64,000 nucleotides of DNA from an uncultured Rikenellaceae bacterium (lineage in GTDB: Bacteria > Bacteroidota > Bacteroidia > Bacteroidales > VadinHA17). The stretch spans positions 259 through 64,258 of the forward strand of contig CAYSBL010000006.1 in assembly GCA_964429295.1 (NCBI GenBank), written 5' to 3'. This document shows positions 11,720-64,000 of the stretch, one piece after another. Position numbers and translations under genes: made by a program. The stretch's first letter is position 1. Every line of letters starts with the position of its first letter. The notes beneath the pieces were generated by a model that saw only the letters and a program-made list of their open reading frames with translations, had not been told where the DNA came from and did no database searches.

Positions 11720-11731
11720 TCAATGGTATTA

Positions 11732-12373: not shown

Positions 12374-12374
12374 A

Positions 12375-15014: not shown

Positions 15015-15033
15015 TATCATTCATTCATTCAAT

Positions 15034-16095: not shown

Positions 16096-16096
16096 G

Positions 16097-17122
16097 ATGA
16101 GCCGGCGTGTTGTTGTCATAGGAGGAGGAACGGCAGGAATGGAAGCCGCAGGCCGGCTTGCCCGGGAAGGTGTTACGGTGACTCTTGTAGAAAAAGGACA
16201 GGACCTCGGAGGGCACCTCAGGAACTGGTATCATTTGTTTCCCGACAGGCGAAGCAGCGATGAGGTACTTGAATATCTCAACGGGCAGGTGTCGCATCAG
16301 AACATCCGTCTTTTGAAAGGCTGCCAGGTAACCGGGTTTCATCGGGATGGAAATGAATTCAGGGTAACCACGGGAAACGGCGAAACAATAAATGCAGATG
16401 CCCTGTTGCTGGCAACAGGTTTTGACCTGTTCAGGAGCGAACGGAAGGAAGAGTATGGCTATGGTATTTATGACAATGTTATTACCTCAGCCGATCTGGA
16501 AACAATGTTCAGGAAGAACGAGATTAAACTTGCAAATGGCCTTATCCCTGAAAGGATTGGATTTGTGCATTGTGTGGGTTCGAGGGATGAAAAAGTCGGC
16601 AACATCTACTGCTCAAAGCTTTGCTGCGTTACGGCAGTTAAGCAGGCTATTGAGGTCAGGAAGATAATCCCTTCGTGCAAAGCTGTTTGTTTCTATATGG
16701 ATATCAGGATGGGCGGCGCCCTGTATGAAGAACTATACAAGGAGGCCCAGGAAAAATACTCGGTAAGCTTCATCCGCGGAAAAGTGTCGGAAGTGGCTGT
16801 GAATATTTCTAACCGGCTTGTCGCCAAAGTAGAGGATACTCTTGTGGGACGTCCTCTTAAAATGGAGATGGATATGCTTGTTCTCATGGCAGGTATGGAA
16901 ATGGCGGAAGATGCTGTCAAGCTTGCTGATGAGGCAAAGCTGAAGAGGGGCGAGAACAGGTTTTTCCAGCCGGCCGATCATCATTTCGGTACGAACATGG
17001 GTAATGTCAGAGGTGTGTTTTATGCCGGCGCCTGCACAGCACCGCTGAACATAACGGAGACTATTTCCCATGCCCGCAGTGCTGTCATGGAAATAGTAAA
17101 CTATCTGAACTCAGCTAAGTAA
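16097..17122 (+). CDS. short HdrA-like FAD/[4Fe-4S] flavoprotein (341 aa)
   Basis: Has a VVVIGGGTAGMEAA dinucleotide fold and an intact HdrA cluster motif, CVGSRDEKVGNIYCSKLCC. The ATG lies 1 nt after the upstream stop. Confidence 0.8.
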   Translation: MSRRVVVIGGGTAGMEAAGRLAREGVTVTLVEKGQDLGGHLRNWYHLFPDRRSSDEVLEYLNGQVSHQNIRLLKGCQVTGFHRDGNEFRVTTGNGETINADALLLATGFDLFRSERKEEYGYGIYDNVITSADLETMFRKNEIKLANGLIPERIGFVHCVGSRDEKVGNIYCSKLCCVTAVKQAIEVRKIIPSCKAVCFYMDIRMGGALYEELYKEAQEKYSVSFIRGKVSEVAVNISNRLVAKVEDTLVGRPLKMEMDMLVLMAGMEMAEDAVKLADEAKLKRGENRFFQPADHHFGTNMGNVRGVFYAGACTAPLNITETISHARSAVMEIVNYLNSAK

Positions 17123-17467
17123 ATGGAGAAATTCGGATTTACACTTTCTAAAGCACGTGTCATCGATTATGACGCCAACGACCGCAGTATCGTTTCCTAT
17201 ATTATTGAAAGGGAACCAAGTCTTAAACTCTGTATTGAATGCGGAAGTTGCACGGCAACGTGCACAACAGGGAATTTCACCGGTTTCAGTCTGAGGGAGA
17301 TACATATTTTATTGAAAAGGGGTGAAAATGAACTGGTAAGGCAGAAAGTAAAGAAATGCATGCTGTGCGGCAAGTGCATTCTGGTCTGCCCAAGGGGAGT
17401 CAACACCCGCAATGTGGTAAGTCTGGCTAAACAGGCGTTCAGAAAAACAGAAGGCTATGAATTTTGA
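17123..17467 (+). CDS. small 2x[4Fe-4S] ferredoxin-like protein (HdrC2-like)
   Basis: Contains CIECGSCTATC and CMLCGKCILVCP. The ATG directly abuts the upstream stop. Confidence 0.68.
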   Translation: MEKFGFTLSKARVIDYDANDRSIVSYIIEREPSLKLCIECGSCTATCTTGNFTGFSLREIHILLKRGENELVRQKVKKCMLCGKCILVCPRGVNTRNVVSLAKQAFRKTEGYEF

Positions 17468-19361
17468 TCCGTTCATCATACCATTTAACATTGGACTTTA
17501 CTTCATAATCATCTATGCAGTGGTCAGGAGCGTTATCTGGTTCAGGGAGCTTTCAAGATCCGACAAGCTCAGGCTCCAGAGGGGATTTTTCGGCAGGGCA
17601 TTCGGTCAGAGCCTTAAGGAGATATTCCTTGAGAGTCTTATTCACAGAAAGATACTCAGGTCGAATCCCCGCCTTGGCTATATGCATATGAGTCTTGCTT
17701 TCGGATGGTTTCTTCTTATTCTGTTCGGGACAATAGAGGCTGATATCTTTGGGGAAAAACATCTGAATCCTCCGTACAAGGCCATATTCTTCAAGTTCTT
17801 CAATCCCGACCATGGTAAAACTTTTTTTGAGGCGTCCTATACATTCCTCATGGATCTTATACTTGCCTTCATATTGTCGGGACTGATACTGGCTGTCATC
17901 AAGAGGTTTACATCAAAAGTTGTTGGCATGAAGAAGACTACCCGGCTCAAGCCTCTTGACAAGATTGCCCTGACATCTCTCTGGCTTATTTTTCCAAGTC
18001 GTCTTATCGCAGAGAGTCTTACAAGCGGAGCTTACGGTACGGGCAGTTTTCTGACAGGAAACCTGGGAGCAGCACTGGCCTCTTTTCTTCCTGCGAATGA
18101 GGTTGCCTATCCTTTCTGGTGGCTCTATTCGTTATCGCTCGGTACATTTTTCGTTCTGCTTCCTCTCACCAGGTATCTTCACATTCCGACTGAACTGTTC
18201 CTGATCTTCATGAGAAACTCAGGCATCAGGACGGGCGACCGGCCCGGAACCTATTCGGAGGTAGAAGTGCATTCATGCTCTTCCTGCGGGATGTGCATCG
18301 ATGTGTGTCAGCTTGGCTTTTCGGCGGGGATCAATACTATCCAGGCCACCTACCTGATGAAAGGAATCCGAAACAGTGAGGAACTCTATGACGTAGCCCA
18401 CAATTGCCTCATGTGCGGCAGATGTGATCACATATGCCCGGTAGGGATAGAGATATCCCCGATAAGGATGATAGTCAGAAGGACCGAGGAAAACGAACAT
18501 GTTTACGAGAACAGGTGGAACGGATATTTCAGGAACAGACTGAATGTGGCTTCGCCGAAGCAGCAGAACGGTACATCATATGGTTTTCTTCCAAAACCGA
18601 AACAGGAAAAAGCAGATGTACTATATTTTGCCGGGTGCATGACGCATCTTACTCCCTCGATCAAGAAAGCCATGGTCAGGATACTGGATGCATCTGGTCT
18701 CAACTGGTCGTTCATGGACGAGCAGGGCGGAGCTTGCTGTGGAAGACCGCTTATGCTGGAAGGCAATGACAGGGAGGCGCGTGAACTGATAAACTACAAC
18801 TCTCAGCTCATCTGGAATTCCGGTGCCCATACACTCGTAACATCATGCCCGATATGCTTTAAGGTATTCAGGGAGAGTTATTATCTTGATGTCGAAGTGC
18901 TTCATCATTCACAATTCATCAAAAACCTTATAGATGAAGGTCTTATCGACCTCAATTTTCTTCAGAAACGGGTCACCTACCATACCCCCTGCGAACTTGG
19001 ACGAAGGTCAGGTATTTACGATGAACCAAAGGAAGTAATAAGGCATGTGGCCACTCTCGAAGCCACCGGTTATGATGATGAGAATTCCCTGTGCTGCGGG
19101 GGAAGCCTGGGAAACATCATGCTTAGTCGCGAAAAAAAGCAAAGGATAGCGGAGGATGTTACAGCAAGGCTGACTGCCTGTTCTCCCGACTCACTTATTA
19201 CTTCATGTCCTCTTTGTAAGAAGACTCTGGCTCAGGCCACCGGCACAAAAGTCATGGATATTGCTGAGCTTGTCGTCGAGGCAATAGCCAGTGCTCACGA
19301 GCCGAAAAAAAGCCACGGGAGATTTAAAAAAAAGATCCTGAGTGAGTCGACCGCATCCTGA
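17457..19361 (+). CDS. membrane-anchored FeS/CCG oxidoreductase subunit (HdrE/DsrM-like membrane domain fused to HdrD/DsrK/GlpC-like module)
   Basis: The N-terminal ~270 aa carries 5-6 hydrophobic helices with His residues (GYMHMSLAFGW, RYLHIPTE). This is followed by CSSCGMCIDVCQ and CLMCGRCDHICP, and then two CCG domains (GGACCGRP...TSCPIC; NSLCCGGS...TSCPLC). It overlaps the previous gene by 11 nt. Confidence 0.75.
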   Translation: MNFDPFIIPFNIGLYFIIIYAVVRSVIWFRELSRSDKLRLQRGFFGRAFGQSLKEIFLESLIHRKILRSNPRLGYMHMSLAFGWFLLILFGTIEADIFGEKHLNPPYKAIFFKFFNPDHGKTFFEASYTFLMDLILAFILSGLILAVIKRFTSKVVGMKKTTRLKPLDKIALTSLWLIFPSRLIAESLTSGAYGTGSFLTGNLGAALASFLPANEVAYPFWWLYSLSLGTFFVLLPLTRYLHIPTELFLIFMRNSGIRTGDRPGTYSEVEVHSCSSCGMCIDVCQLGFSAGINTIQATYLMKGIRNSEELYDVAHNCLMCGRCDHICPVGIEISPIRMIVRRTEENEHVYENRWNGYFRNRLNVASPKQQNGTSYGFLPKPKQEKADVLYFAGCMTHLTPSIKKAMVRILDASGLNWSFMDEQGGACCGRPLMLEGNDREARELINYNSQLIWNSGAHTLVTSCPICFKVFRESYYLDVEVLHHSQFIKNLIDEGLIDLNFLQKRVTYHTPCELGRRSGIYDEPKEVIRHVATLEATGYDDENSLCCGGSLGNIMLSREKKQRIAEDVTARLTACSPDSLITSCPLCKKTLAQATGTKVMDIAELVVEAIASAHEPKKSHGRFKKKILSESTAS

Positions 19362-37312: not shown

Positions 37313-38473
37313 ATGGAAAAAATAGGATTAAACAAGGTAGGGCTGATTTTCGAGAATATTGAACCAAAGGAAGTTCTGACGAAGGCTCTCAGAATGTCGA
37401 AAGATGAGATAATTCAGCAGGTTCTTGATTCAGGTCTTAAGGGCCGGGGTGGAGCCGGATTTCCCACAGGGCTGAAATGGAAGTACACTGCTTCAGAAAA
37501 GGACCCGGAGAAGTATATTGTTTGCAATGCAGACGAGGGAGAACCAGGTACTTTCAAGGACAGGGAGATACTTGATCGTGTTGCTTACAAAGTCTATGGC
37601 GGCATGGCAATTGCCGGTCATACAATAGGGGCAAAGGAAGGATATGTTTATCTGCGGGGTGAGTACAAGTTCCTGCTTCCGAAGCTGATGAAGGAGCTCG
37701 ATGATTTTCACAGGATGATCGATGAGATCGGCTATGATTTCAGGATTCATTACCGGATGGGAAGCGGGGCATATATATGCGGTGAGGAAAGTGCTTTGTT
37801 CGAATCAATTGAGGGTTTCAGGGGTGAACCAAGGAACAAGCCTCCCTATCCTACAACCTCGGGTGTTTTCTGCAAGCCGACCTCGATCAATAATGTTGAG
37901 ACTCTGGTTACCGTAATGATGATCATAAGGGACGGAGCTGAATCGTATGTAAGGCTGGGAACAAAGGATTCAAGGGGTTCCAAGGTTTTCTCAATTTCGG
38001 GCGACACTCCAACTCCGGGCATATTTGAACTAGAACTGGGAATGACCGTTCAGGAATTCGTTAGTGAATTTGGCGACGGCGACACCAAGGCAGTTCAGGT
38101 TGGCGGGGCTTCAGGTTTTTGCGTGCCAAGGAAAAAATTCGCAGATACCATCATTGGTTTTGAAGGAGTTCCCACAGGCGGATCAATGAAGCTTTTCAAC
38201 AGCTCGCGATCGATGTATAATGTTCTGCATAATTATCTTGATTTCTTTACCGAAGAATCATGCGGACAATGCACTCCCTGCAGGGTAGGCTGCCAGCAGC
38301 TGCTTAAGGGAGTGGAGAAGGTAAAAAAGGGAGAAGTGAAATCAACCTATCTGAACGAACTGGTTAAACTTGCCGACACCATGAAGATAGCTTCGAAGTG
38401 CGGTCTGGGCCAGTCAGTGGGAAATGCCTTCCGTACCATTGTAGAGAACTTCAGGGAAGAGATCATCTATTAA
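37313..38473 (+). CDS. hydB: NuoF-like FMN/NAD(P)H-binding subunit of [FeFe]-hydrogenase (minimal form, no extra ferredoxin domains)
   Basis: GRGGAGFPTGLKW and NADEGEPGTFKDR motifs are present, together with the N3 cluster motif CGQCTPCRVG...KCGLG. Only 386 aa. Confidence 0.85.
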   Translation: MEKIGLNKVGLIFENIEPKEVLTKALRMSKDEIIQQVLDSGLKGRGGAGFPTGLKWKYTASEKDPEKYIVCNADEGEPGTFKDREILDRVAYKVYGGMAIAGHTIGAKEGYVYLRGEYKFLLPKLMKELDDFHRMIDEIGYDFRIHYRMGSGAYICGEESALFESIEGFRGEPRNKPPYPTTSGVFCKPTSINNVETLVTVMMIIRDGAESYVRLGTKDSRGSKVFSISGDTPTPGIFELELGMTVQEFVSEFGDGDTKAVQVGGASGFCVPRKKFADTIIGFEGVPTGGSMKLFNSSRSMYNVLHNYLDFFTEESCGQCTPCRVGCQQLLKGVEKVKKGEVKSTYLNELVKLADTMKIASKCGLGQSVGNAFRTIVENFREEIIY

Positions 38474-38496
38474 TTCACTTAGAAAATCAGAAAACT

Positions 38497-40278
38497 ATGA
38501 TAAATCTGACCATAAACGACCAGAAGGTTTCAGTACCTGCGGGAACTACGGTTCTTGAGGCTGCAAAACAACTAAAGATTAACATACCAACGTTGTGTAA
38601 TCACCCCGACCTTTGTGTGGCAGGAAATTGCCGCGTATGCGTGGTGGAACAGAAAGGAGCCAGGACTCTTATTGCTTCATGCGCGACTCCTGTTTCAGAG
38701 GGCATGGAAATAAATACCAATACCCTGAAGGTAAGGAATGCGCGCAGGCACATTGTTGAACTCCTTCTTTCAGAGCATCGTTCCGACTGCACAAAATGCT
38801 ATAAGAACACCAAGTGCGAACTTCAGGCCCTCGCCAATGAATTTGCCTTTGGCGATACGATTTTCCTGGATCTGGTGGAGGATCATCCGTACACTATCGA
38901 CAGATCATCTCCATCCTTCATAAAGGACGACAGTAAATGTATCAGGTGTCAGCGCTGCGTGAGAACCTGTTCCGAGCTTCAGTACATTTCTGCAATTGCT
39001 GTTGCCAACAAGGGAGCTCACCAGAAGATATCATCCTTCCACGACAGGCCGATGAGCCATGTTATCTGCACCAACTGCGGGCAGTGTGTAAACCGCTGTC
39101 CTACCGGTGCCCTTACAGAAAAGACCTATATCGACCAGGTATGGGATGCCATTTATGACCCTGAGAAGTATGTCATTGTCCAGACCGCTCCGGCGGTAAG
39201 GGTTGCCCTTGGTGAGGACCTGGGTTATGATCCAGGTGAAAGGGTTACCGGGAAAATGGTCAATGCTCTCAGGCAGCTTGGATTCGATAGTGTTCTTGAC
39301 ACCGATTTCAGCGCCGACCTGACCATAATGGAAGAAGGGACTGAACTGCTTACAAGGTTGAAGAAAGCCCTGGTCGACAAGGATACCTCGATAAAATTCC
39401 CCATGTTCACTTCCTGTTCTCCGGGCTGGATTAAGTTCATTGAACACAAGTATCCTGAATTTCTTCCGAACCTCTCAACCTGCAAATCACCGCAGCAAAT
39501 GTTCGGTGCACTTGCAAAAACCTTTTATGCTGAAAAGAAGAAGGTCGATCCGTCAAGGGTGGTATCTGTATCCATCATGCCATGCACGGCAAAGAAATAT
39601 GAAGCCGACAGGCCTGAAATGAGGGCCAGCGGTTACAAGGACATCGATTTTGTTCTTACAACACGTGAACTTGCCGTAATGATAAAACAGGCCGGCATTG
39701 ATTTCAGGAATCTCGAATCTGCTCATTATGATTCCATTATGGGTGATTCGACCGGCGCAGCCGTGATTTTCGGAGCTACCGGAGGAGTTATGGAAGCTGC
39801 GCTCAGAACTGCATACGAAATAGTAACCGGCAGGGAGGTTCCTTTCAATAATCTCAACATCACTCCTGTAAGGGGTCTTGAAGGTGTCAAGGAAGCTACG
39901 GTGAAAATACAGGGCTGTACCGAGGACTGGAAGTTCCTGGAAGGAGCAGAACTGAAGGTTGCCATAGCTCACGGACTTGTTAATGCCAACCAGGTTATGG
40001 CGGACGTCCGCGAAGGAAAATCCCCATATCACTTTGTTGAAATAATGGCATGCCCCGGAGGTTGCATCGGAGGCGGAGGCCAGCCGATCCCGACCAGTCA
40101 GGAGATCCGTCAGAACCGGGTGAATGCCATCTATGAAGAAGATGAGCATATGGTTCTGCGTAAGTCGCATGATAATCCCGATGTTATAGCCCTTTACAAG
40201 GAATTCCTTGGCAAGCCCAACAGCCATAAGGCACATGAATTATTGCATACCCACTATTTCGAAAGGGACAGCTTTTAG
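38497..40278 (+). CDS. hydA: [FeFe]-hydrogenase catalytic subunit (M3-type: 2Fe-2S + His-ligated 4Fe-4S + 2x4Fe-4S + H-domain)
   Basis: The N-terminus has CNHPDLCVAGNCRVC, then CIRCQRCVRTC and CTNCGQCVNRCP. H-cluster motifs are FTSCSPGW (L1, variant), MPCTAKKYEA (L2) and EIMACPGGCIGGGGQP (L3). The start is set at the ATG at 38497 (MINLTINDQ); the track start at 38398 overlaps hydB. Confidence 0.9.
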   Translation: MINLTINDQKVSVPAGTTVLEAAKQLKINIPTLCNHPDLCVAGNCRVCVVEQKGARTLIASCATPVSEGMEINTNTLKVRNARRHIVELLLSEHRSDCTKCYKNTKCELQALANEFAFGDTIFLDLVEDHPYTIDRSSPSFIKDDSKCIRCQRCVRTCSELQYISAIAVANKGAHQKISSFHDRPMSHVICTNCGQCVNRCPTGALTEKTYIDQVWDAIYDPEKYVIVQTAPAVRVALGEDLGYDPGERVTGKMVNALRQLGFDSVLDTDFSADLTIMEEGTELLTRLKKALVDKDTSIKFPMFTSCSPGWIKFIEHKYPEFLPNLSTCKSPQQMFGALAKTFYAEKKKVDPSRVVSVSIMPCTAKKYEADRPEMRASGYKDIDFVLTTRELAVMIKQAGIDFRNLESAHYDSIMGDSTGAAVIFGATGGVMEAALRTAYEIVTGREVPFNNLNITPVRGLEGVKEATVKIQGCTEDWKFLEGAELKVAIAHGLVNANQVMADVREGKSPYHFVEIMACPGGCIGGGGQPIPTSQEIRQNRVNAIYEEDEHMVLRKSHDNPDVIALYKEFLGKPNSHKAHELLHTHYFERDSF

Positions 40279-53813: not shown

Positions 53814-54761
53814 TCAAACAAGGATCCTGGTGGTCAGGTTGGTTATACTTTTCTGAATGTCAGCGAACATGTCGCCATCCCTTGTCTCATCCTGTTCAAC
53901 TATCATATACTTCATTCCTGCAATATCCTTTGCTGCAATTATATCCTTGAACGGAACCACTCCTTCACCTACGGGAGCGATGTTGTCCTTTACCACATCA
54001 AAGTAAGGAGGCATCTGAGTATAACCGTCCTTCAGGTGGAAAAGAGGGAATCTTCCCGGATACTTGTTGAAGATATCCACCGGATTGTGGCCGGCCTGGG
54101 TAACCCAGAACATATCCATTTCCATGACCACCAGATCTTTGTCTAATTCGGCAAGCATAATATCGAAATAGGGTACTTTGCCTTCAACGGTGGCAAACTC
54201 GAAGTTGTGGTTATGATACCCAAACTGAAGTCCGAATTCCTTCATTACCTTACCTATCTCATTCCAGTTGGCTGCCATTTTCTGGTAAGTAGCGACCGAG
54301 TTTCTCATTTCTTCCACGATCCATGGCTGAATGCAGTATTTGGCTCCGATAAGGGCATGGTCCTCAGCCATTTTTCTGGCACTCTCGAGGGTAACTCCGA
54401 CTCCCTCAACCTGAGTGTGGCTGCTCAGAATCTCCATTCCGAGATCATTTACCATTTTTTTGAAGTCTGCCGGGGAGTAACCGTAGAATTTACCATCAAC
54501 GTAATCGGCAAGTTCAACATATTTATAACCCAGGTCGGAAACTTTTTTGAGTGAACCCGGAACATCGGCTGTCATAGCATCCCTTATGGTATAAAGCTGA
54601 AGCCCAAGGCCGAATGATTTGGGATCAACATTTTCTGGTTCCGCAACCTTTGCTGCCTTATTGGAGGCATTCCGGCAGGACGACTGTGATAGAACAAAAG
54701 CTCCGAGAGCGCCGGCCGCTGACACCCTCAGAAAATCTCTCCTGGATTGTGATTTTTTCAT
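53814..54761 (-). CDS. xylose-isomerase-like TIM-barrel protein (sugar phosphate isomerase/epimerase) with Tat signal
   Basis: Has an N-terminal twin-arginine motif, SRRDFLRVSAAGALGA. The remainder is AP-endonuclease-2/XylA-like TIM-barrel sequence. Confidence 0.65.
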   Translation of the reverse strand: MKKSQSRRDFLRVSAAGALGAFVLSQSSCRNASNKAAKVAEPENVDPKSFGLGLQLYTIRDAMTADVPGSLKKVSDLGYKYVELADYVDGKFYGYSPADFKKMVNDLGMEILSSHTQVEGVGVTLESARKMAEDHALIGAKYCIQPWIVEEMRNSVATYQKMAANWNEIGKVMKEFGLQFGYHNHNFEFATVEGKVPYFDIMLAELDKDLVVMEMDMFWVTQAGHNPVDIFNKYPGRFPLFHLKDGYTQMPPYFDVVKDNIAPVGEGVVPFKDIIAAKDIAGMKYMIVEQDETRDGDMFADIQKSITNLTTRILV

Positions 54762-54997: not shown

Positions 54998-56176
54998 ATG
55001 TACAGGACAATTCTTATGCTGACAATCGTTCTGCTTTCTTCCTGCGGTTCACTTACTGAATCCGGGAAAAAGACAGATACTGAACTGAAGTGGTCGGTCA
55101 GGATGGCCAATACGGTTATAAACCGCTCTGACAGTCTGATCTACTATGTCGACAGGCACCCGAAATGGGCATATGATGTTGCTTTTCTTGGAATGGCTAT
55201 TGACCGGCTTGGTTCCATGGACCCAAAATTCTCAAATTACATGGAGGACTGGGTGGATTATTTCGTCAGGGAAGATGGCAGCGTCGTTGATTACAGAAAA
55301 GAGGAGTATAATCTCGACAGGATCTTTCCCGGGAGGAATGTCCTTACGGTCTATGGAAGGAAAGGGGATGACAAATACAGGATAGCTCTTGATGGTTTTA
55401 TTGATCAGCTGCGCGATCATCCCTTAACAAACTCGGGAGGGTACTGGCATAAGAAGATCTATCCCTGGCAGATGTGGCTTGACGGGATTTTTATGGGATC
55501 GACCTTTATGGTGCAGTATGCGTCCAGTTTTAATGCTCCCGAATGGTACGACGTTGCTGTGAACCAGGCACGGATGGCTTATGAGAAGACACTCGATCCG
55601 GAATCAGGATTACTGATGCATGCCTGGGATGAAAGCCGGGAGCAGAAGTGGTGTGATCCCGCGACAGGCCGCTCGCATTTTCCCTGGAGCCGTGCAACAG
55701 GCTGGTATCTTATGGCTCTTACAGATATACTGGAATATCTGCCTGAGGAACATCCTGGAAGAGGCGATCTGATTCATATCCTGCAATCGACATCTGAAGC
55801 TCTTCTCAAAGTGCAGGATGCAGAGACCGGACTCTGGTTTCAGGTGCTTAATCAGGGCAACAGGGAAGGAAACTATATTGAAGGTTCCGGCTCTGCCATG
55901 TTCGCTTATGTATTTGCACGAGCAGCAAAAGCAGGGTATCTCGACAAGAAATATCTTGAAATCGCAGGAAAGGCCTTTGATAACATTGTTAAGGAGCTCA
56001 TAACCGTAGATGCGGACGGAAATCTGACCATGCACAATATAGTCGGAGGATGCGGCCTGGGAGGTAATCCTTACCGCGACGGCTCATACGAATATTATAT
56101 CAACGAGAAACGCGTCGACAATGATACCAAGGGTGTAGCTCCCTTTATTCTGGCAGCCCTGGAACTGGATAAGTAA
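54998..56176 (+). CDS. GH105/GH88-type unsaturated rhamnogalacturonyl (glucuronyl) hydrolase, YteR-like
   Basis: GGYWHKKIYPWQMWLDGIFMG and WSRATGW motifs are typical of YteR-like (alpha/alpha)6 hydrolases. A lipoprotein-type signal (LLSSCGS) is present. Confidence 0.75.
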   Translation: MYRTILMLTIVLLSSCGSLTESGKKTDTELKWSVRMANTVINRSDSLIYYVDRHPKWAYDVAFLGMAIDRLGSMDPKFSNYMEDWVDYFVREDGSVVDYRKEEYNLDRIFPGRNVLTVYGRKGDDKYRIALDGFIDQLRDHPLTNSGGYWHKKIYPWQMWLDGIFMGSTFMVQYASSFNAPEWYDVAVNQARMAYEKTLDPESGLLMHAWDESREQKWCDPATGRSHFPWSRATGWYLMALTDILEYLPEEHPGRGDLIHILQSTSEALLKVQDAETGLWFQVLNQGNREGNYIEGSGSAMFAYVFARAAKAGYLDKKYLEIAGKAFDNIVKELITVDADGNLTMHNIVGGCGLGGNPYRDGSYEYYINEKRVDNDTKGVAPFILAALELDK

Positions 56177-56183
56177 GACTATA

Positions 56184-57431
56184 TTACAGAAATATCCTTT
56201 TTATATGTCTTGAATACATATTGTCAAAGACGCATTGGGATACAACTTCCATGTGTTTATCAAGGAGCCTGAAGAAATGGTCCATGTCATTAGCTGCTAG
56301 CTTGTATGCAACATGGATGAGCTGCCGCATGTTTGGATTGTAATCGCTGACCGACTGATCGTGCCTGAGCGATGATGCGAATTTCCGGCTGTTCCATGCC
56401 CGTACTTCACCGGCCGACGGCAGCATCTTTACGTTGATATCTATAACATCCGCATACGGGGCGCAAAGCTCCTCGGTCTTTTCAAGCGCCTGAATATAAA
56501 TGGATTTCGCAAAATCAAGCGCATCTCCTCCGGCTTCCGCAAGTCCGATGATTTCTTCAAGCCAGGTTGTTCCCGCTGTTTTGAGGTGAACTCCTTTGTT
56601 GTGTTTTTTTAGTATTGAACCAATGATGGGATACAGGGCAAACTTGTCTGAGCCGGAATGAATGCTGATCTTCAGCTCTGAAGGCAATCCGAATTCCTTT
56701 ATTGCAAGATCGATCACCATGAGGTCTTCCTCGAATTCAATGCCAAACTGAGCAGGATCGCCTACATAGTCAACCCCCTTGTTGAATCTGCCTGAGAATT
56801 TTGGTGCAATTGTCCGGACAGGTACTTTTTCTTCCCCAAGCATAAGCAGGATGAAGAAGAGTTCCACAGGTGTCTGTGGCGATGCGACTTCGTCCATTGA
56901 TACTTCTGTGACAAAATTGCCTGCCCCCTTTGACTTTTCAATTTTCCTGTATATCTCTCCGGCTTTTCCGGCAGCGAAAAGGTATTTCTCAGCTATACCT
57001 GCCAATTGGTCTGCTGAACACCTGATTGATTTCCTGAGGCCGGGAACCTCAATCCTGCCTGAATATTTCCTTGCCGTTTCGAGGAAGGAGCCGATTTTTG
57101 AATCTTCTGCCCGTTTTCCTATATAGGAAGCAACGTCGATGGTGAAGAAGTCGGAGGCTGGAATAAACCTGTCGACGGTATCAAAGTTAATATGATCGGC
57201 ATCCACAAAATAGGGTCCGGTAAAACCGGCAGCCCTGGTGACGGCATCGGCCTCTTTTCTTACGTCCGGTGGCTGTGTGCCAATGATCATGTGCTCTCTG
57301 TTCGACTTGTTCCATACGGGAGTGATGTCGACACCAACTTTCCCTGCTTCAATAACAGCCTTAAGCTGTGCGTGACCCTGATGACCAAAGCGGTCACCCA
57401 TACCCATTGAGTATTTACCTAATGTCTTCAT
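56184..57431 (-). CDS. UxaE-family tagaturonate/fructuronate epimerase-like protein
   Basis: GMGDRFGHQGHAQL...NREH...FVDADHINF follows the UxaE pattern I recall (GxGDRxG...H...RE...DADH). It lacks the N-terminal extension of the Thermotoga enzyme. The gene context is hexuronate. Confidence 0.55.
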   Translation of the reverse strand: MKTLGKYSMGMGDRFGHQGHAQLKAVIEAGKVGVDITPVWNKSNREHMIIGTQPPDVRKEADAVTRAAGFTGPYFVDADHINFDTVDRFIPASDFFTIDVASYIGKRAEDSKIGSFLETARKYSGRIEVPGLRKSIRCSADQLAGIAEKYLFAAGKAGEIYRKIEKSKGAGNFVTEVSMDEVASPQTPVELFFILLMLGEEKVPVRTIAPKFSGRFNKGVDYVGDPAQFGIEFEEDLMVIDLAIKEFGLPSELKISIHSGSDKFALYPIIGSILKKHNKGVHLKTAGTTWLEEIIGLAEAGGDALDFAKSIYIQALEKTEELCAPYADVIDINVKMLPSAGEVRAWNSRKFASSLRHDQSVSDYNPNMRQLIHVAYKLAANDMDHFFRLLDKHMEVVSQCVFDNMYSRHIKRIFL

Positions 57432-57438
57432 TGCTCAT

Positions 57439-58851
57439 TTAAATGTTTTCCACCCGTTTCATCCTTGGGACAAGGAAATGCATCAGTATCCAGGCGACAA
57501 GGTAGGCTATTCCACAGAATATGAACATAATTCCGTAGCCGACTTCCGTCTTGTCCAGAGTAGTGTAATGCTTGAGAAGAAGCCCTGCTGCCTGTGCAAC
57601 AAGAATACCACCTACAGCACCTGCCATTCCTCCGATGCCGGTTACGGATGCCACTGCTTTTTTGGGGAACATGTCAGTTACGGTCGTAAAAATATTGGCT
57701 GACCATGCCTGGTGAGCGGCACATGCAAGTCCGATGACGAGTACTGCATACCATGTGTTGAACTGACCGAGCCAGCTTGCGAGCAGAACTGAAAGAGGGA
57801 ACAGGGCATAGATGAACATGGAAAGCTTTCTGGCCTTGTATGTTGCCATTCCTCCGTTCATGAATTTTTTCGGGAGCCATCCGCCGAAAATCGATCCGAT
57901 GGTTGCAATAGTGTAAACCACAGCCACTGCAATGGTCCAGCTTATCACCCCGGGAACATCAGCTCCGGTGCCTGAATAGGCAGGATTCATGTTTTTGAAT
58001 TCAAGGATCTTTCTTGCATTCTCACCATTCAGGAAAGCCGGCAGCCAGAACAGATAGAACCACCATACCGGGTCGGTCAGGAACTTACCGAAGAAGAAGG
58101 CCCATGTCTGGCGTTTTGAAAGCAGAATAACCCAGGGAACTTTTTCTGCCTTGCCTTCAAGTTCTTTCTTCTTTTCTTCCTTCTCGTCGATGTCGCTATG
58201 GATATAATCATATTCAGCCTGAGTAAGCACTCCGGCTTTCAGCTTCTGTTCAGGTGAGGCATAGGTGCGGAACCAGAATAAGAGCCATACGAGTCCGATT
58301 GCTCCCACGAAAATGAATGCCACTTCCCATCCCCAGTGAACTGCTATCCATGGAACGAAGAGAGGAGTAAGGATGGCTCCGACATTTGTTCCTGAATTAT
58401 AGATACCTGTGGCAAGTGCCCTTTCTTTTTTGGGAAACCATTCTGCCATTGTCTTGTTTGCGGCAGGGAAGTTGCCTGCTTCGGTGAAGCCAAGGGCTGC
58501 CCTCCAGATACCAAAGGTAAATGCGTTATGAGCAAGAGCGTGTCCCATTGCCGCGATACTCCATCCAAGCAGTGAAAAGGCGTATCCTCTCTTTGTGCCG
58601 ATCCAGTCGATGAACCTGCCTGCAAGAGTCATACCAACGGCATAGGCGATCTGGAAAGCCATTACCACCCATGAGTAGTATAATTCCTGGTTGGCTTTGT
58701 CGGCTCCGAAGACACCCTCTTCGGCCAGGGTTGGTTTAAGAAGACCGAGTACATTACGGTCGAAGTAGTTTACTGTAGTTGCGAAAAAGACAAGAGCACA
58801 GATGGTCCACCTGTATTTTCCAATAGTCTCATTGATAGAAGCTGCTGACAT
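57439..58851 (-). CDS. MFS transporter, ExuT-like hexuronate transporter
   Basis: A 12-TM MFS. The N-terminus YRWTICALVFFATTVNYFDRNVLGLL is typical of the ACS/ExuT family. Confidence 0.72.
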   Translation of the reverse strand: MSAASINETIGKYRWTICALVFFATTVNYFDRNVLGLLKPTLAEEGVFGADKANQELYYSWVVMAFQIAYAVGMTLAGRFIDWIGTKRGYAFSLLGWSIAAMGHALAHNAFTFGIWRAALGFTEAGNFPAANKTMAEWFPKKERALATGIYNSGTNVGAILTPLFVPWIAVHWGWEVAFIFVGAIGLVWLLFWFRTYASPEQKLKAGVLTQAEYDYIHSDIDEKEEKKKELEGKAEKVPWVILLSKRQTWAFFFGKFLTDPVWWFYLFWLPAFLNGENARKILEFKNMNPAYSGTGADVPGVISWTIAVAVVYTIATIGSIFGGWLPKKFMNGGMATYKARKLSMFIYALFPLSVLLASWLGQFNTWYAVLVIGLACAAHQAWSANIFTTVTDMFPKKAVASVTGIGGMAGAVGGILVAQAAGLLLKHYTTLDKTEVGYGIMFIFCGIAYLVAWILMHFLVPRMKRVENI

Positions 58852-58873: not shown

Positions 58874-60328
58874 TTAGACATTGTAGATTGTTGATGCTGT
58901 TGTTCCTCCGCGGCCGGTCCAGTTTGTATGGAAGAATTCTCCTCTTGGCCTGTCGGTACGTTCATAAGTATGGGCTCCGAAGTAATCCCTCTGGGCCTGA
59001 AGAAGATTGGCGGGTAGTTTCTCGCACCTGTATCCGTCAAAATAACACAGGGCTGACGACATTGCAGGAACGGGGATCCCGTTGACAAGAGCCGACGAAA
59101 TGACGTTTCTCCACCCAGCCTGGGCTTTCTCAACCTTTGTCCTGAAGAACGGATCAAGGAGCAGGTTCGGAATATCCGGATTATTATCGAAAGCTTCCTT
59201 GATCTTTCCGAGGAACGCTGATCTGATTATACAGCCGCCCCTCCACATCAGGGCAATTCCTCCGTAGTTGAGCTTCCATCCGAATTCCCCGGCAGCGGCC
59301 CTCATAAGCTGGTAGCCCTGGGCATAGGAAACAATTTTCGAAGCATACACCGCTTCCCTCAGATCATTGATAAATGCTTTGCGGTCGCCGCTGAAAACTT
59401 TCCCGGGACCTGACAATATCCCGGAAGCTGCAACTCTTTCATCCTTTATTGCTGAGAGACACCTCGAAAACACGGCTTCTCCGATAAGAGTAAGGGGAAT
59501 GCCTACGTCAAGCGCGGTGACAGCCGTCCATTTTCCTGTGCCCTTCTGGCCAGCGGTATCGAGTATCTTGTCGACCAGCGGCTTGCCGTCCTCATCCTTA
59601 AAGGCAAGAATGTCCCTTGTTATTTCTATAAGATAACTGTCGAGTTCTCCTTCGTTCCATTCCCTGAACACAAGGTGCATATCATCAGCGCTCATATGGA
59701 GAAGATCCCTCATTATCTGGTAGGCTTCGCAGATCAGCTGCATGTCTCCGTATTCAATGCCGTTATGAACCATTTTGACGAAATGTCCTGCGCCGTTTTC
59801 GCCAACCCAGTCGCAGCACGGTGTCCCGTCGTCTACTTTTGCTGCGATAGCCTGGAATATGGGTTTGACTTCGGGCCATGCGGCAGGTGAACCGCCGGGC
59901 ATTATAGATGGTCCCAGAAGAGCTCCTTCTTCTCCTCCCGAAACTCCGGTCCCGATATAGAGAAGCCCCTTGCTTTCAACCAGGGCGGTCCTCCTGTTGG
60001 TATCAGGGAAATGAGTGTTCCCGCCATCAATGATAATATCCCCTTTTTCAAGGTAGGGGATAAGGGTGTTGATCATATCATCAACCGCACCGCCTGCCTT
60101 TACCATTATCATAATCTTCCTCGGTCTCTTAAGGGATTTTACCAGCTCCTCAACCGAATGGGCTCCGACAATTTTCAAGCCCTTTGCCCGCCCCGCAAGG
60201 AAGTCATCAACCCTTTGAAGCGTCCGGTTGTAAACAGTGACCTGAAAGCCCTTACTCTCCATGTTGAGAACAAGGTTTTCACCCATCACGGCCAACCCGA
60301 TCAATCCGATATCCGATTTTGTGTCCAT
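58874..60328 (-). CDS. gnd: 6-phosphogluconate dehydrogenase, decarboxylating
   Basis: IGLIGLAVMGENLVLN (NADP fold), GAGHFVKMVHNGIEYGDMQLI and a C-terminal tail. Size is 484 aa. Confidence 0.92.
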   Translation of the reverse strand: MDTKSDIGLIGLAVMGENLVLNMESKGFQVTVYNRTLQRVDDFLAGRAKGLKIVGAHSVEELVKSLKRPRKIMIMVKAGGAVDDMINTLIPYLEKGDIIIDGGNTHFPDTNRRTALVESKGLLYIGTGVSGGEEGALLGPSIMPGGSPAAWPEVKPIFQAIAAKVDDGTPCCDWVGENGAGHFVKMVHNGIEYGDMQLICEAYQIMRDLLHMSADDMHLVFREWNEGELDSYLIEITRDILAFKDEDGKPLVDKILDTAGQKGTGKWTAVTALDVGIPLTLIGEAVFSRCLSAIKDERVAASGILSGPGKVFSGDRKAFINDLREAVYASKIVSYAQGYQLMRAAAGEFGWKLNYGGIALMWRGGCIIRSAFLGKIKEAFDNNPDIPNLLLDPFFRTKVEKAQAGWRNVISSALVNGIPVPAMSSALCYFDGYRCEKLPANLLQAQRDYFGAHTYERTDRPRGEFFHTNWTGRGGTTASTIYNV

Positions 60329-60440: not shown

Positions 60441-61436
60441 TCATGTTTTTAGACCTGTCTCCCTGTAGTATTCCTTTACAACCTCATCCATCACCCAACT
60501 GGTCCTTGCACCTGTAATTCCGGTGCTTACAACATCTCCTCCCCCTGAAAGAGCCCTGACAATCTGCTCAATCAGATAAAACTGTATGTTTTCAGGTCTT
60601 TCATTTGCAAATTCCTTAGTTCCCGAGGAATTGACAAGGACGATCGGGTCGTATGTAAATGTAGAGGTTTTTATGATTCCTTTATCACCGACAATCTCAA
60701 AATAATCTCTGTTGGCTTCCCTGGAAACAGTAAAACTCCAGATTCCGGTACCGACTATATTGCCTTTGAAAACGAAGGATGCTGCGACGAAATCCTCTGC
60801 CTGATACAATCCTGACTGGTTGACGGCCATTGATGATACTTTGATTACCGGTCCGAAAATGTAATCAAGGAAATCAAGCTGATGGGATCCCAGGTCAAAG
60901 AAATGACCTGCTCCCGATATTTCCGGAATCACTCTCCAGGGAGGATTTCCGGATTTTTCGGCTTCGGAAGCATAATTATAGATCTGAAAGTTTGCAAACC
61001 GTGGTTGCCCGATCTCGCCGGCTTCTATCAGATTCTTTATCAATTGAAAACCTGGTAGTGTTCTCCTGTAATAAGCAACATAAACAGGAAGCCCGGCATT
61101 TTCTGCAGCCTCATTTATCATGACACACTCCCTGTAATTTGCGGCCATAGGTTTTTCAATATACACCGGTTTTCCTGCTTTCAGAGTCCTGATGGCATAT
61201 TCAGCATGACTTCCGGGTGGAGTAGCTATATAAACTGCATTTACCTCATTATCATGGATGAGGTCATCGGCATTGGAATAATACCTTGGCACATTATGCC
61301 TTCTGGCATAATCTTCAGCCAGATGCCTGTTCCGGCGCATAACTGCAACAAGTCTCGATCCGTCAACTTTATTGAAAGCCGGACCACTCTTTTGCTCAGT
61401 GACTTTGCCGCAGCCTATTATCCCCCAGTTAATCAT
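60441..61436 (-). CDS. Gfo/Idh/MocA-family NAD(P)-dependent oxidoreductase
   Basis: The N-terminus INWGIIGCGKV is a Rossmann fold, and the EKP motif (YIEKPMA) is present. It overlaps the upstream gene by 4 nt. Confidence 0.8.
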   Translation of the reverse strand: MINWGIIGCGKVTEQKSGPAFNKVDGSRLVAVMRRNRHLAEDYARRHNVPRYYSNADDLIHDNEVNAVYIATPPGSHAEYAIRTLKAGKPVYIEKPMAANYRECVMINEAAENAGLPVYVAYYRRTLPGFQLIKNLIEAGEIGQPRFANFQIYNYASEAEKSGNPPWRVIPEISGAGHFFDLGSHQLDFLDYIFGPVIKVSSMAVNQSGLYQAEDFVAASFVFKGNIVGTGIWSFTVSREANRDYFEIVGDKGIIKTSTFTYDPIVLVNSSGTKEFANERPENIQFYLIEQIVRALSGGGDVVSTGITGARTSWVMDEVVKEYYRETGLKT

Positions 61437-62704
61437 CTGAGCTTGTCTTTAGATGCCCAAAGCCCCACAGCAGGATTTGAAATATAGTAGATCTCCTCGC
61501 CGTCAGGCATTATGTTAACTCCTTCCCTGAGTCGCATGGGATCATATTTCTTTATCATGATATCAAGATCGGTATACCTGAAATTTACCGATTCCATTTC
61601 CTGTCTGGTAAGGAATCCCGGACAGTAGGTAATTGAAAATCTTCCCTCTGAACTGCCATGAATCAGGTGTGCTGCAGCACTGAGATTATCCATAAGCTCG
61701 GGATTCTGATCGGTTGCATTCAGGGTAGCAGGAGTACCCCTGTACCCGTACTTCCTTATCAGCCTGTCAATTTCCTTGTCTTCGCCGAACTCCTTCAGCC
61801 CGGGCGCAAGTATTATCAATTCACCGTTGTCGGCCATCGCCATCCTTGTACGGTATATGCTTTTATTGCCCAGCCAGGTGCTTTTGAATTCCGAAGGATC
61901 AAGATAAACCACTGCTTTCTTAATGGGTTTTTCGAGAACGGTGAAATTGACCCTTATTGATAGGTCTGAAGCAAGTTTGAATACTTCGTAGTCATCGCCG
62001 ATATAAAGTCCTCTTATAACCAGTTTCCCATTATCATCACGGCCAATTACCGTCTGGATATAGACAACCGGAAGGTCACGGATGAAGTTGTCGGAAGCAT
62101 AGTTAAGCATCTTTCTGACCGGTGTATCGGCTTTTCCCATCATTCTTTCCATCCCGTATACGGCCCCGACAAAGTGGCTCTTGTTGATACCTTCCGGGCC
62201 GCCGGTGCCGACAAACAGGTTCTTGTTGTAGTTGGCCATGCCCACAACTTCATGAGGTACGACCTGACCGATCGAGATAATCAGGTCGTATCTGCCATTG
62301 ACGAGAAGTTTGTTCAGCTGTGCAGGCCAGGAATAGGAGAGCTTTCCTTCTGTTATTTCCGAAATGAATTCTCCAGGAACAGTACCTACGGTAACAACAT
62401 CGTTTCTCCAGTCATGGACCCTGAATAATTTTGCCGGAACTCCACTGAACATTTCGTTTATCTCAGCCGGTGTCATCGGGGAATGGGTACCCAGTGCGGG
62501 TAAAATGTCGGTAAGGCTCTCGTTGTAGTACTTGTAAACGAGGGTGGTAATGTCGCCGGCACGTGAGTGGAACCTTGTAAAATCGGGTGGCAGTGCCAGT
62601 ACTTTCTTTCTCTGCCCAAGCTTCACCAGCGCGGAGTAGACTCCATACTCCAGTTCATTGGGGCCAATCACTGTATTTTCCGATCCTGATTGATAGTATA
62701 TCAT
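61433..62704 (-). CDS. LarA-like (DUF2088) nickel-pincer-cofactor hydroxyacid racemase/epimerase family protein
   Basis: ALGTHSPMT matches the His108-like motif. PHEVVGMANYNK...(16)...H reproduces the His174-x10-Lys184-x16-His200 spacing of L. plantarum LarA. Confidence 0.6.
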   Translation of the reverse strand: MIYYQSGSENTVIGPNELEYGVYSALVKLGQRKKVLALPPDFTRFHSRAGDITTLVYKYYNESLTDILPALGTHSPMTPAEINEMFSGVPAKLFRVHDWRNDVVTVGTVPGEFISEITEGKLSYSWPAQLNKLLVNGRYDLIISIGQVVPHEVVGMANYNKNLFVGTGGPEGINKSHFVGAVYGMERMMGKADTPVRKMLNYASDNFIRDLPVVYIQTVIGRDDNGKLVIRGLYIGDDYEVFKLASDLSIRVNFTVLEKPIKKAVVYLDPSEFKSTWLGNKSIYRTRMAMADNGELIILAPGLKEFGEDKEIDRLIRKYGYRGTPATLNATDQNPELMDNLSAAAHLIHGSSEGRFSITYCPGFLTRQEMESVNFRYTDLDIMIKKYDPMRLREGVNIMPDGEEIYYISNPAVGLWASKDKLR

Positions 62705-62734
62705 TGTTTTTCTGTTATGTTGTATTAAATCAAT

Positions 62735-62867
62735 AAGTTGCTGGTTGCTGGTTACTGGAGACTTACCGATTTCCGATTACTGAATACTGAATACTGAATA
62801 CTGAATACCAGTCCCTAACTGCCAACTGCTTCCTGCCAGCTGCCAACTTTTCCTTTACCCTTTGCCA
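62735..62867. repeat. phase-coherent heptanucleotide tandem array (19 heptads, several sub-families)
   Basis: Plus strand reads: AAGTTGC TGGTTGC TGGTTAC TGGAGAC TTACCGA TTTCCGA TTACTGA ATACTGA ATACTGA ATACTGA ATACCAG TCCCTAA CTGCCAA CTGCTTC CTGCCAG CTGCCAA CTTTTCC TTTACCC TTTGCCA. It ends exactly at the SDR stop codon (62868). Confidence 0.9.
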
Positions 62868-63725
62868 TCACACCCCGGAATACGCACTGAATCCTCCGTC
62901 GACCGGTATAACGACTCCCGTAACAAATTTCGACAGGTCAGATACCAGGTACAGCAACGTTCCTGTTAGTTCCTCCGGTGTGCCGAAGCGTTCCATCGGT
63001 GTGCTTCCCAGGATCTTTCTGGTCCTGGCAGTTGGTTCTCCGGTTTTTTCATCCATTAGGAGGAACCTGTTCTGATTGGTAAGCAGGAAACCGGGAGCTA
63101 TGGCATTCACCCTGATCCCTATTTTTGAGAAATGAACTGCAAGCCATTGTGTGAAATTATTAACAGCAGACTTTGCTGCTGAATATGCTGCTATTTTGGT
63201 AAGAGGCCTGTATGAGTTCATCGAAGAAATGTTAACAATAACACCGCTCCTGTTTTTCACCATGTCGGTAGCATAGACCATGGTCGGAATCAGCGTACCT
63301 TTGAAGTTCAGGTCAAATACCTTGTCAAAACCTTCAAGTTTAAGCCCGAAAAAGGTGTCTTCAGGGTCCTCTGTGCCATCCATCTTCTCGGCTTTAGCAG
63401 TTGCAGCCGGGGAGTTACCGCCAGCGCCGTTGACAAGTATATCTATTGAGCCGAAATTCTCGTTGATTATTTTTTTGGATGCCAGAAGTGAGTCCCTGTC
63501 AAGCACGCTTGCAGAGAGTCCCATTGAAGGAGTTCCGAACTGCTTTTCAATGTCACCGGCAACTTTCATGGCTGCTTCCTGGTTCAGATCTATAATTACG
63601 GTTTTTACACCCTGGAATGCAAGGGATCTGGCCATTTCCGAACAAATGAGACCTGCACCGCCGGTGATGACTGCTGTTTTTCCTTTTAGATTTAGTTCAT
63701 TCATGTTTTGTAGCTTTATTAACAT
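62868..63725 (-). CDS. SDR-family oxidoreductase, UxuB-like (fructuronate/mannonate reductase type)
   Basis: TGGAGLICSEMA is the TGxxxGxG motif. The YSAAK catalytic motif and NAIAPG are present. The probable true start is MNELNLKGK at 63704. Confidence 0.72.
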   Translation of the reverse strand: MLIKLQNMNELNLKGKTAVITGGAGLICSEMARSLAFQGVKTVIIDLNQEAAMKVAGDIEKQFGTPSMGLSASVLDRDSLLASKKIINENFGSIDILVNGAGGNSPAATAKAEKMDGTEDPEDTFFGLKLEGFDKVFDLNFKGTLIPTMVYATDMVKNRSGVIVNISSMNSYRPLTKIAAYSAAKSAVNNFTQWLAVHFSKIGIRVNAIAPGFLLTNQNRFLLMDEKTGEPTARTRKILGSTPMERFGTPEELTGTLLYLVSDLSKFVTGVVIPVDGGFSAYSGV

Positions 63726-63778: not shown

Positions 63779-64000
63779 TTAGAATTCAAAATATTCTTTT
63801 GCGTTTTTGTATGACACGCCTTCGATCAAAGGTTTAACCAGTTCATCTTCATCGGGAATGTTGCCCTTCTCAATCTGGGAGCCGATGAAATTGCATAGTA
63901 TCCTTCTGAAGTACTCATGACGTGGGAAGGAAAGGAAGCTTCTGGAATCAGTAACCATACCCACGAATCTTCTCAGTAATCCAAGTGAAGCAAGGTCCCT
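63779..64000 (-). CDS. uxaC: glucuronate isomerase, C-terminal part (ORF runs off the right edge)
   Basis: The C-terminal sequence [36 protein letters not shown] is the conserved UxaC tail. The frame is open to position 64000. Confidence 0.85.

Follow-up and report, generated by a model that had tools for sequence, protein, structure and literature searches.

What does a LarA-like gene contribute to an operon for the breakdown of hexuronates? The gene in question lies at positions 61433 to 62704, on the minus strand, of a 64,000-nucleotide stretch of DNA from an uncultured Rikenellaceae bacterium (contig CAYSBL010000006.1 of assembly GCA_964429295.1; hereafter the window). The original prediction, made from the letters alone, was that its product is a nickel-dependent epimerase that turns D-mannonate into D-gluconate and so feeds 6-phosphogluconate dehydrogenase (Gnd), which is encoded in the same operon. 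In the present study, we analyzed the gene, its operon and the neighborhoods of its homologs, and we consider it probable that the protein is a 2-hydroxyacid epimerase dependent on the nickel-pincer nucleotide (NPN), a member of group 18 of the LarA homologs (LarAH) that interconverts D-mannonate and D-gluconate at C2 and feeds Gnd. What we observed as the basis for this reading is the family membership, the intact catalytic and cofactor residues, the fold, the make-up of the operon, and the linkage across species to genes for a short-chain dehydrogenase/reductase (SDR), Gnd and kinases. Although family, residues, fold, context and the enzymology of relatives all speak for the proposal, it is not new; the enzyme family, its chemistry and the idea of the pathway had already been published, and in the case of group 18 both the name 'putative hexonate epimerase' and a table with the gnd association already existed.

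The call of open reading frames (ORFs) confirmed a LarA-like protein of 423 amino acids (aa) at the predicted place, with an ATG start. The protein scores 657.5 bits against the NCBIfam equivalog model NF052594 (cutoff 500; profile positions 3-410 of 411; E 6.5e-198), which is named NPN_18_hexonate and titled 'nickel-dependent putative hexonate epimerase', and it matches the sequence of PDB entry 4NAR with an E value of 2e-36; chance is not an issue as a source of these family matches. To map residues, a family profile of 34 homologs (34-90% identity) was aligned to the lactate racemase LarA of Lactiplantibacillus plantarum (5HUQ/6C1W), for which counting along the printed chain reproduced the published numbering. 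Such an alignment with a characterized LarA had been named as a check of the prediction, and it matched the cofactor and catalytic residues. H74 aligns to H108 of LarA, H151, K161 and H177 to H174, K184 and H200, and D41 and R44 to D72 and R75, while K281 is the equivalent of the catalytic K298, as mapped via K287 of GntE2. The two motifs pointed out earlier are thus real: ALGTHSP holds H74, and VVPHEVVGMANYNKNLFVGTGGPEGINKSHFVG is H151-x9-K161-x15-H177, with a spacing identical to that in LarA. Each of the catalytic and cofactor residues is kept in at least 31 of the 34 homologs (at least 90%; K161 and H177 in 32, R44 in 31). The protein differs from L. plantarum LarA in its low overall identity (about 16%), in having E152 and V153 where LarA has the bulky F175/F176 loop, and in having small residues in place of W358; these replacements fit a polyhydroxylated C6 substrate.

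E152 and V153 directly follow the second catalytic histidine, H151, and such an 'E-V/S' loop was described as a signature of LarAH groups 18-20 (Desguin et al. 2020; PMC7583248). In Dataset S2 of the same study, group 18 is labelled 'G2E3' and has the signature D R H H E V K H V W L N K S A A L I H S (PMC7583248). The window protein fits this signature with D41, R44, H74, H151, E152, V153, K161, H177, W277, L278, N280, K281 and the segment SAAAHLIHGSS. Its identity to the group-18 references is 67% for Melioribacter roseus MROS_2332, 64% for BFO_3309 of the Bacteroidales species Tannerella forsythia and 62% for Acidobacterium capsulatum ACP_2683, at the same length and with identical signature residues, and 47-54% for more divergent members, including 54% for a diatom member. 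GntE2 of Thermotoga maritima (TM0442, LarAH20, 4NAR), a member of group 20, is only about 25% identical, so the window protein is nearer to group 18; the comparison with group 19 was indirect. Thus, judged by its sequence, the protein belongs to LarAH group 18 and to NF052594.

The predicted structure agrees with this placement. In an AlphaFold (AF2) model (pLDDT 96.1, pTM 0.91), the protein has the two-domain fold of the LarA superfamily, and all 19 Foldseek matches in the PDB at E values of 1e-3 or less are LarA-family structures. The best of them is 4NAR, the gluconate 2-epimerase GntE2 (TM score 0.82), and L. plantarum LarA (5HUQ) follows the same fold with TM scores of 0.69-0.71. Both catalytic histidines are kept, and the single-histidine LarA-like enzymes (9Q3J) are distant structural matches only. 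GntE2 shares with the window protein its catalytic residues, its NPN-binding residues and the E-V/S loop; it differs in having a glycine before the catalytic lysine, where the window protein has an asparagine.

As reported in later papers, the genomic surroundings in T. maritima led Rodionova et al. (2012) to propose that GntE, a LarA homolog, epimerizes mannonate to gluconate, and that a gluconokinase and 6-phosphogluconate dehydrogenase then join hexuronate catabolism to the pentose phosphates (cited in PMC7583248 and PMC6978723). Epimerization of mannonate was demonstrated by Desguin et al. (2020) for LarAH19 of Corynebacterium glutamicum and LarAH20 of T. maritima, and both GntE1 and GntE2 act on D-mannonate (PMC7583248). 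Their Table S1 lists as neighbors of group-18 genes an SDR (36%), 6-phosphogluconate dehydrogenase (32%), a ribokinase-family kinase (16%), and an MFS transporter, glucuronate isomerase and KduI (12% each) (PMC7583248), that is, the partners that the family of the window protein has as well. From the same laboratory, Urdiain-Arraiza et al. (2024) found that LarAH15 of Phytophthora nicotianae is a GntE that used only D-mannonate and D-gluconate out of 20 substrates, with a Km of 9.4 mM and a kcat of 111 per s, and they assigned all eukaryotic LarAHs to the GntE branch (PMC11770544). The primer with which LarAH15 was cloned encodes MATLLFAEG, and the group-18 protein PITG_09435 of P. infestans contains MTLLFAEGS (Dataset S2 of Desguin et al.); the termini of LarAH15 had no exact match among the representatives that we retrieved. 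Because of this match of the primer-encoded N-terminus, a short one and not a full alignment, and since the P. infestans and diatom homologs are in group 18, we infer that LarAH15 is a group-18 member, which would give the group an assayed, if eukaryotic, representative.

By homology with LarA, K161 would tether the cofactor through a thioamide and H177 would ligate the nickel. Either H74 or H151 would take the proton of the hydroxyl group while the C2 hydride passes to the pyridinium C4 of NPN, leaving an enzyme-bound 2-keto-gluconate as the intermediate; after return of the hydride to the opposite face, the other histidine would reprotonate.

The surroundings of the gene are consistent with such an activity. 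The order expected for the operon, uxaC - SDR - LarA homolog - Gfo/Idh/MocA - gnd - MFS - UxaE, was recovered, with every gene on the minus strand. The glucuronate isomerase gene uxaC is cut by the edge of the window, which contains its 3' end (63779 to 64000); the 73 aa encoded there share 89% identity with the C-terminal end of UxaC from a relative, locus L007, whose full-length protein scores 593 bits on NF002794. The uxaC gene is followed by an SDR-type D-mannonate oxidoreductase, or fructuronate reductase (62868 to 63725; PRK08277, 386 bits against a cutoff of 281), for which gene callers favor a start at 63704 (278 aa) and of which the best PDB match is 4WUV (281 bits). The UxaD protein of T. 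maritima (TM0441/1VL8) was ruled out as an ortholog of this SDR, its 101 bits being generic SDR similarity. On the other side of the epimerase gene, a Gfo/Idh/MocA oxidoreductase gene (60441 to 61436), with both the N- and C-terminal GFO_IDH_MocA domains of Pfam, overlaps the epimerase stop by 4 nucleotides with its start and is translationally coupled to it; no NCBIfam model reaches its cutoff with this protein, and the nearest PDB matches are uncharacterized or GFOR/AFR proteins at 101 bits or less. Then come gnd itself (58874 to 60328; decarboxylating type, TIGR00873, 778 bits against a cutoff of 427), a major facilitator superfamily (MFS) transporter of the anion:cation symporter type (57439 to 58851; Pfam MFS_1, 194 bits), which is a candidate importer of hexuronates or hexonates and has the D-galactonate transporter subfamily as its best NCBIfam match (185 bits, under the cutoff), and a UxaE-like tagaturonate/fructuronate epimerase (56184 to 57431; Pfam PF16257, 173 bits against a cutoff of 27). 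A scan of the operon for sigma-70 promoters and terminators, which does not cover Bacteroidota promoters, found no excess over shuffled sequence.

Read together, these genes suggest a route. Glucuronate or galacturonate would be imported by the MFS transporter and isomerized by UxaC to fructuronate or tagaturonate, and UxaE would convert tagaturonate to fructuronate, which the SDR would reduce to D-mannonate. The epimerase would then produce D-gluconate, a kinase encoded elsewhere would form 6-phosphogluconate, and Gnd would yield ribulose-5-phosphate, CO2 and NADPH. The substrate and the direction of flux in this scheme, the presence in this genome of genes for NPN synthesis and of the kinase, and any role of the Gfo/Idh/MocA protein are what we infer.

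Linkage across species supports the scheme at the level of the family. The epimerase is carried by at least 598 of the species-representative genomes scanned. For neighborhood counts, the 80 closest carriers (64-81% identity, 80 species) were used; they come from at least five phyla, among them Bacteroidota, Ignavibacteriota, Verrucomicrobiota, Planctomycetota and Acidobacteriota. ORFs were called in these 80 loci and clustered, and the frequent clusters were annotated; the denominators 55, 52 and 40 below are the loci with enough flanking sequence. The recurrent module runs LacI > SDR > PfkB kinase > epimerase > [Gfo/Idh/MocA] > [PdxB-like dehydrogenase] > gnd, the bracketed genes being optional. 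On the same strand and within 5 kb upstream of the epimerase, the SDR is present in 42 of 55 loci (76%), and gnd lies downstream in 39 of the 52 loci whose flank extends for 5 kb or more (75%). The PfkB kinase gene directly precedes the epimerase gene in 30 of 55 loci (55%), the Gfo/Idh/MocA gene directly follows it in 17 of 52, and in 21 of 52 the downstream genes include a PdxB-like one. Often, a classical module (UxaE, UxaC, a KdgK-type PfkB kinase, Eda and MFS) adjoins in divergent orientation; of the 40 loci with complete flanks, 24 have UxaE and 23 have UxaC, and within 8-10 kb on both sides 10 have Eda and 3 have UxuA. The lineage of the window is unusual in this company, since it has uxaC, the MFS gene and uxaE in one transcription unit with the epimerase gene and lacks the PfkB kinase and LacI regulator in the operon, although nothing that defines group 18 differs.

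Two further genes of these neighborhoods attracted our attention. The PdxB-like D-2-hydroxyacid dehydrogenase scores 433.4 bits on NF001309, of which the cutoff is 434, and is encoded between the epimerase and gnd in 32 of the 80 loci, all outside the window, for example at L060 11297-12433 and L038 12532-13653, in Bacteroidota, Ignavibacteria and one gammaproteobacterial metagenome-assembled genome; it could be a 2-keto-6-phosphogluconate reductase or a similar enzyme, or a genuine PdxB kept by synteny. Furthermore, in six loci the place before the epimerase gene where PfkB is usual is taken by a protein of about 300 aa that has a HAD-like DxDG motif and matches no NCBIfam model (directly upstream in L015, L022, L040, L060 and L083; also in L043).

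The kinases associated with the epimerase are of particular interest. The PfkB kinases linked to it form clades apart from the Eda-linked KdgK type (about 30% identity), and on two models for kinases of 2-keto-3-deoxygluconate (KDG) they score 167 and 87-97 bits, far under the cutoffs, compared with 505 and 218 bits for the Eda-linked enzymes; public pipelines nevertheless label them 2-dehydro-3-deoxygluconokinase. Examples, all outside the window, are L030 8881-9990, L082 179-1258, L017 17656-18498 and about 35 other loci. These clades are candidates for a gluconate or mannonate kinase. In four cluster representatives at 50% identity (P0125, P0128, P0141 and P0149), a gluconokinase of the GntK/IdnK type is fused N-terminally to the epimerase; the fusion proteins are 588-612 aa long and 48-54% identical to the window protein, and their kinase domains score 128-184 bits on TIGR01313 and pass its cutoff of 113.75. 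In another protein, P0147 (823 aa), the epimerase is fused to a C-terminal domain of the AGE family (GlcNAc 2-epimerase-like, PF07221). In Thermotoga, the partner is an FGGY kinase (Table S1, group 20; PMC7583248). Thus, three non-homologous types of kinase stand beside GntE-like epimerases, PfkB adjacent in most group-18 relatives, GntK in fusions, and FGGY, which suggests that the conserved need is for a hexonate 6-kinase; as two of the three are established gluconokinase families, gluconate is modestly favored as the kinase substrate. The Thermotoga pathway otherwise has the same logic as that of the window (UxaC, UxaE, an SDR reductase, epimerase, kinase and Gnd), with an SDR that is not orthologous.

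Several observations weigh against this interpretation of the window gene. We found none of larB, larC and larE, the genes for NPN synthesis, in the 64-kb window or in about 10 kb more of the same strain, and these approximately 74 kb likewise contain no PfkB kinase of either clade, no GntK-type kinase and no FGGY kinase. The only assayed enzyme of group-18 type is eukaryotic, and it is linked to group 18 by the match of its primer and by the statement on the GntE branch. The tested GntEs have a high Km for free mannonate, 9-120 mM (PMC7583248, PMC11770544), and extracts of Lactobacillus suebicus epimerize 6-phosphomannonate and not free mannonate (PMC6978723). Finally, the tightly coupled Gfo/Idh/MocA gene fits nowhere in the scheme. 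As for the kinase, no PfkB enzyme of either clade and no GntK-type enzyme is encoded within 10 kb of the epimerase gene in relatives of about 90% identity, and searches with the L017 kinase and with LarC of Bacteroidota gave, among the 120 matches listed for the two, none on the contigs of these relatives (1,044,896, 886,586 and 456,570 bp). In a relative of 72% identity, the kinase gene is about 6 kb downstream of the epimerase gene, and therefore the kinase can be unlinked from the operon. Of the partners expected of a gluconate 2-epimerase, the reductase and gnd are present in the operon, and no candidate for the obligatory kinase step was found in the approximately 74 kb, although most relatives have one. 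The only PfkB protein of the window, a fusion of PfkB and HAD domains encoded at 9815-11719, was ruled out as the missing kinase, with 16% identity to either kinase clade and no tblastn match; it also lies 50 kb away, among genes for SIS-domain proteins.

The behavior of the L. suebicus extracts is the starting point for another order of steps, in which mannonate is first phosphorylated by the PfkB kinase and the enzyme, as a 6-phospho-D-mannonate 2-epimerase, delivers 6-phosphogluconate to Gnd. If this were true, the phosphorylated sugar acid would be the real substrate of the family, and what is measured with free mannonate, at a Km of about 10 mM, would be a side reaction. The route described by Valk et al. 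(2020; PMC6978723) has the same entry (UxaC, UxaE and UxuB) and the same exit (6-phosphogluconate and Gnd) as the one proposed here and is also redox-neutral from uronate to ribulose-5-phosphate, but the two middle steps come in reverse order: extracts without ATP made no gluconate from mannonate, and there was formation of 6-phosphomannonate and its interconversion with 6-phosphogluconate. That work did not identify the genes, and no later paper among those searched names them. The PfkB gene directly upstream of the epimerase gene in 30 loci, its separation from the KdgK type with low scores on the KDG-kinase models, and the high Km of all assayed GntEs would agree with this order. However, the Phytophthora enzyme, GntE1 and GntE2 turn over free mannonate with kcat values of 59-197 per s, the fusions carry a GntK/IdnK-type gluconokinase, of which the E. 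coli enzyme GntK was reported not to accept mannonate (PMC6978723), and the operon of the window has no partner kinase; sequence alone did not discriminate for or against a phosphate-binding site in the epimerase. The measured turnover of free mannonate and the gluconokinase fusions argue against phosphorylation as the first step, which we consider doubtful, and with the same reserve we would suggest that the group-18 epimerase and the diverged upstream PfkB kinase may be the genes for both of the orphan activities of Valk et al.

Still less probable, in our judgment, is that the enzyme epimerizes another hexonate (L-gulonate/L-idonate, D-altronate/D-allonate or L-galactonate/L-talonate), so that the coupled Gfo/Idh/MocA protein makes or uses the substrate and the mannonate activity of the relatives is a side reaction. 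Desguin et al. (2020) and NCBIfam deliberately wrote 'hexonate' and not gluconate, N280 replaces the glycine that precedes the catalytic lysine in GntE2, and the Gfo/Idh/MocA and PdxB-like genes that follow the epimerase gene, the former overlapping its stop and having no assigned role, could serve such a substrate. On the other hand, these two genes are optional in the module, whereas its commonest members, a mannonate-forming SDR upstream and gnd downstream, bracket one inversion at C2 and one phosphorylation, and given these flanking genes another substrate is less likely. UxaE channels tagaturonate to fructuronate, and therefore altronate is not expected; in addition, gluconokinase fusions exist and LarAH15 is specific for mannonate and gluconate. 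The least probable explanation, one that we think very unlikely, is that the protein is inactive as an NPN enzyme here, either because a genome without larB, larC and larE leaves it as an apoprotein or because it has a cofactor-independent function. The lack of these genes in the sequence of the strain would fit, as would their presence within 10 kb in only one of the 80 related loci, the absence of any Lar gene near group 18 in Table S1 (PMC7583248), and the occurrence of LarA homologs in only 4.7% of reference Bacteroidota. Nevertheless, every NPN-binding and catalytic residue is kept throughout the family, which is not expected without selection for the cofactor chemistry and makes an apoprotein unlikely. 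The larB, larC and larE genes are also usually unlinked to larA homologs in other groups, and LarC is common among the Bacteroidota families that carry the epimerase, although the LarC search mentioned above gave, among the matches listed, none on the contigs of the relatives of about 90% identity. The one locus with these genes is that of Saccharicrinis sp. FJH62, where larB, larC and larE all score over the equivalog cutoffs and lie 2-7 kb from the epimerase-gnd pair. In this locus (L030 12819-18599, minus strand), larE-larC-larB is followed by a 244-aa ORF without a match and a TonB-dependent receptor gene, and the receptor may be a component for the uptake of nickel or of a cofactor precursor.

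How does the mannonate/gluconate epimerase route relate to the KDG route? The original prediction had noted that uxuA, kdgK and kdgA are absent from the window, which holds for the 64 kb searched, and had suggested that hexuronates are routed to gluconate instead of through the classical dehydratase and KDG. The Logan contigs with an identical LarA protein all end about 100 nucleotides upstream of the gene, inside a heptamer repeat. The sequence was therefore extended past position 64000 with the 278-aa form of the SDR as the query, by means of contigs 100% identical to the window over 1,221 nucleotides. In the same strain, the rest of uxaC (full length 465 aa in contig L095) is followed by a divergent kduI, a gene for a kduD-like SDR and then unrelated genes; in these approximately 10 kb more, uxuA, kdgK and kdgA were again not found. 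The arrangement that was named as refuting the proposal, uxuA-kdgK-kdgA immediately upstream in the operon, is thus not present, and kduI-kduD stand there instead. Convergent to the operon, at 54998 to 56176 on the plus strand, is a gene for a GH88 unsaturated glucuronyl hydrolase (Pfam Glyco_hydro_88, 307 bits), kept at the same position in the relatives L010 and L013, which supplies unsaturated uronate and so needs the KduI/KduD-KDG route. With kduI-kduD and GH88, KDG is produced and KdgK and KdgA are needed elsewhere in the genome, and therefore replacement of the KDG route is not supported; the epimerase route would be a branch parallel to the KduI/KduD-KDG route for unsaturated uronates. 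In other species, the epimerase module adjoins a classical UxaC-KdgK-Eda module.

The repeat that interrupts the assemblies lies in the spacer between the SDR and epimerase genes (62705 to 62867), which contains three tandem arrays of heptamers (62737-62758, 62778-62808 and 62817-62848). The window contains 4 copies of GTATTCA in one array, for which contig L099 (1811-1994; 99.2% identical) has 7, the rest of the spacer being identical, and at the same site the relatives of about 90% identity have other heptamers, AGGGCRC in about 18 copies or AGTTGGC in 3.4 copies (L007 9799-9928 and L010 9901-9924). The Logan assemblies break inside the heptamer array, and the copy number of GTATTCA varies between strains. 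The spacer is a hypervariable repeat within an operon.

Several other genes of the window may be mentioned. Between the GH88 gene and a GH35 gene, at a position kept in relatives, a xylose-isomerase-like TIM-barrel protein (AP_endonuc_2; 53814-54761, minus strand) with a twin-arginine-type signal, MKKSQSRRDFLRVSAAGALGAFV, is encoded; as part of the glycan-degrading locus, it probably acts in the periplasm as a sugar isomerase or lyase. The PfkB-HAD phosphatase fusion mentioned above (634 aa) is followed by two SIS-domain proteins (9815-13238 in all, minus strand), one of which resembles glucokinase regulatory protein or MurQ; this sugar-phosphate module is unrelated to the operon. An NADH-dependent [FeFe]-hydrogenase with a Nuo51-like subunit and a large subunit with a small-subunit domain (37313-40278, plus strand), and heterodisulfide-reductase-like CCG/4Fe-4S proteins with a flavin oxidoreductase (14304-19361, plus strand), would fit a strictly anaerobic fermenter.

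What is added here to the published picture is the linkage across 80 species, the fusions of gluconokinase and epimerase, the larB, larC and larE genes beside the epimerase gene in one Bacteroidota isolate, and the sequence past position 64000. The significance is modest, and the leads lie mostly outside the window, at the level of the family: the dedicated but mis-annotated paralog of KDG kinase, the gluconokinase-epimerase fusions, and the Gfo/Idh/MocA and PdxB-like oxidoreductases without an explained role. Together, they make the order of the steps, epimerase first or kinase first, directly testable. For the organism, an uncultured Bacteroidales lineage joins those that probably send part of the carbon of uronic acids, from pectin, glycosaminoglycans and hemicellulose of plant and host glycans, into the pentose phosphate pathway through a nickel-cofactor epimerase. 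For anaerobic digesters and gut communities, metabolic models would be affected in the yield of CO2 and NADPH, in the requirement for nickel, and in the inclusion of a redox-neutral route to ribulose-5-phosphate.

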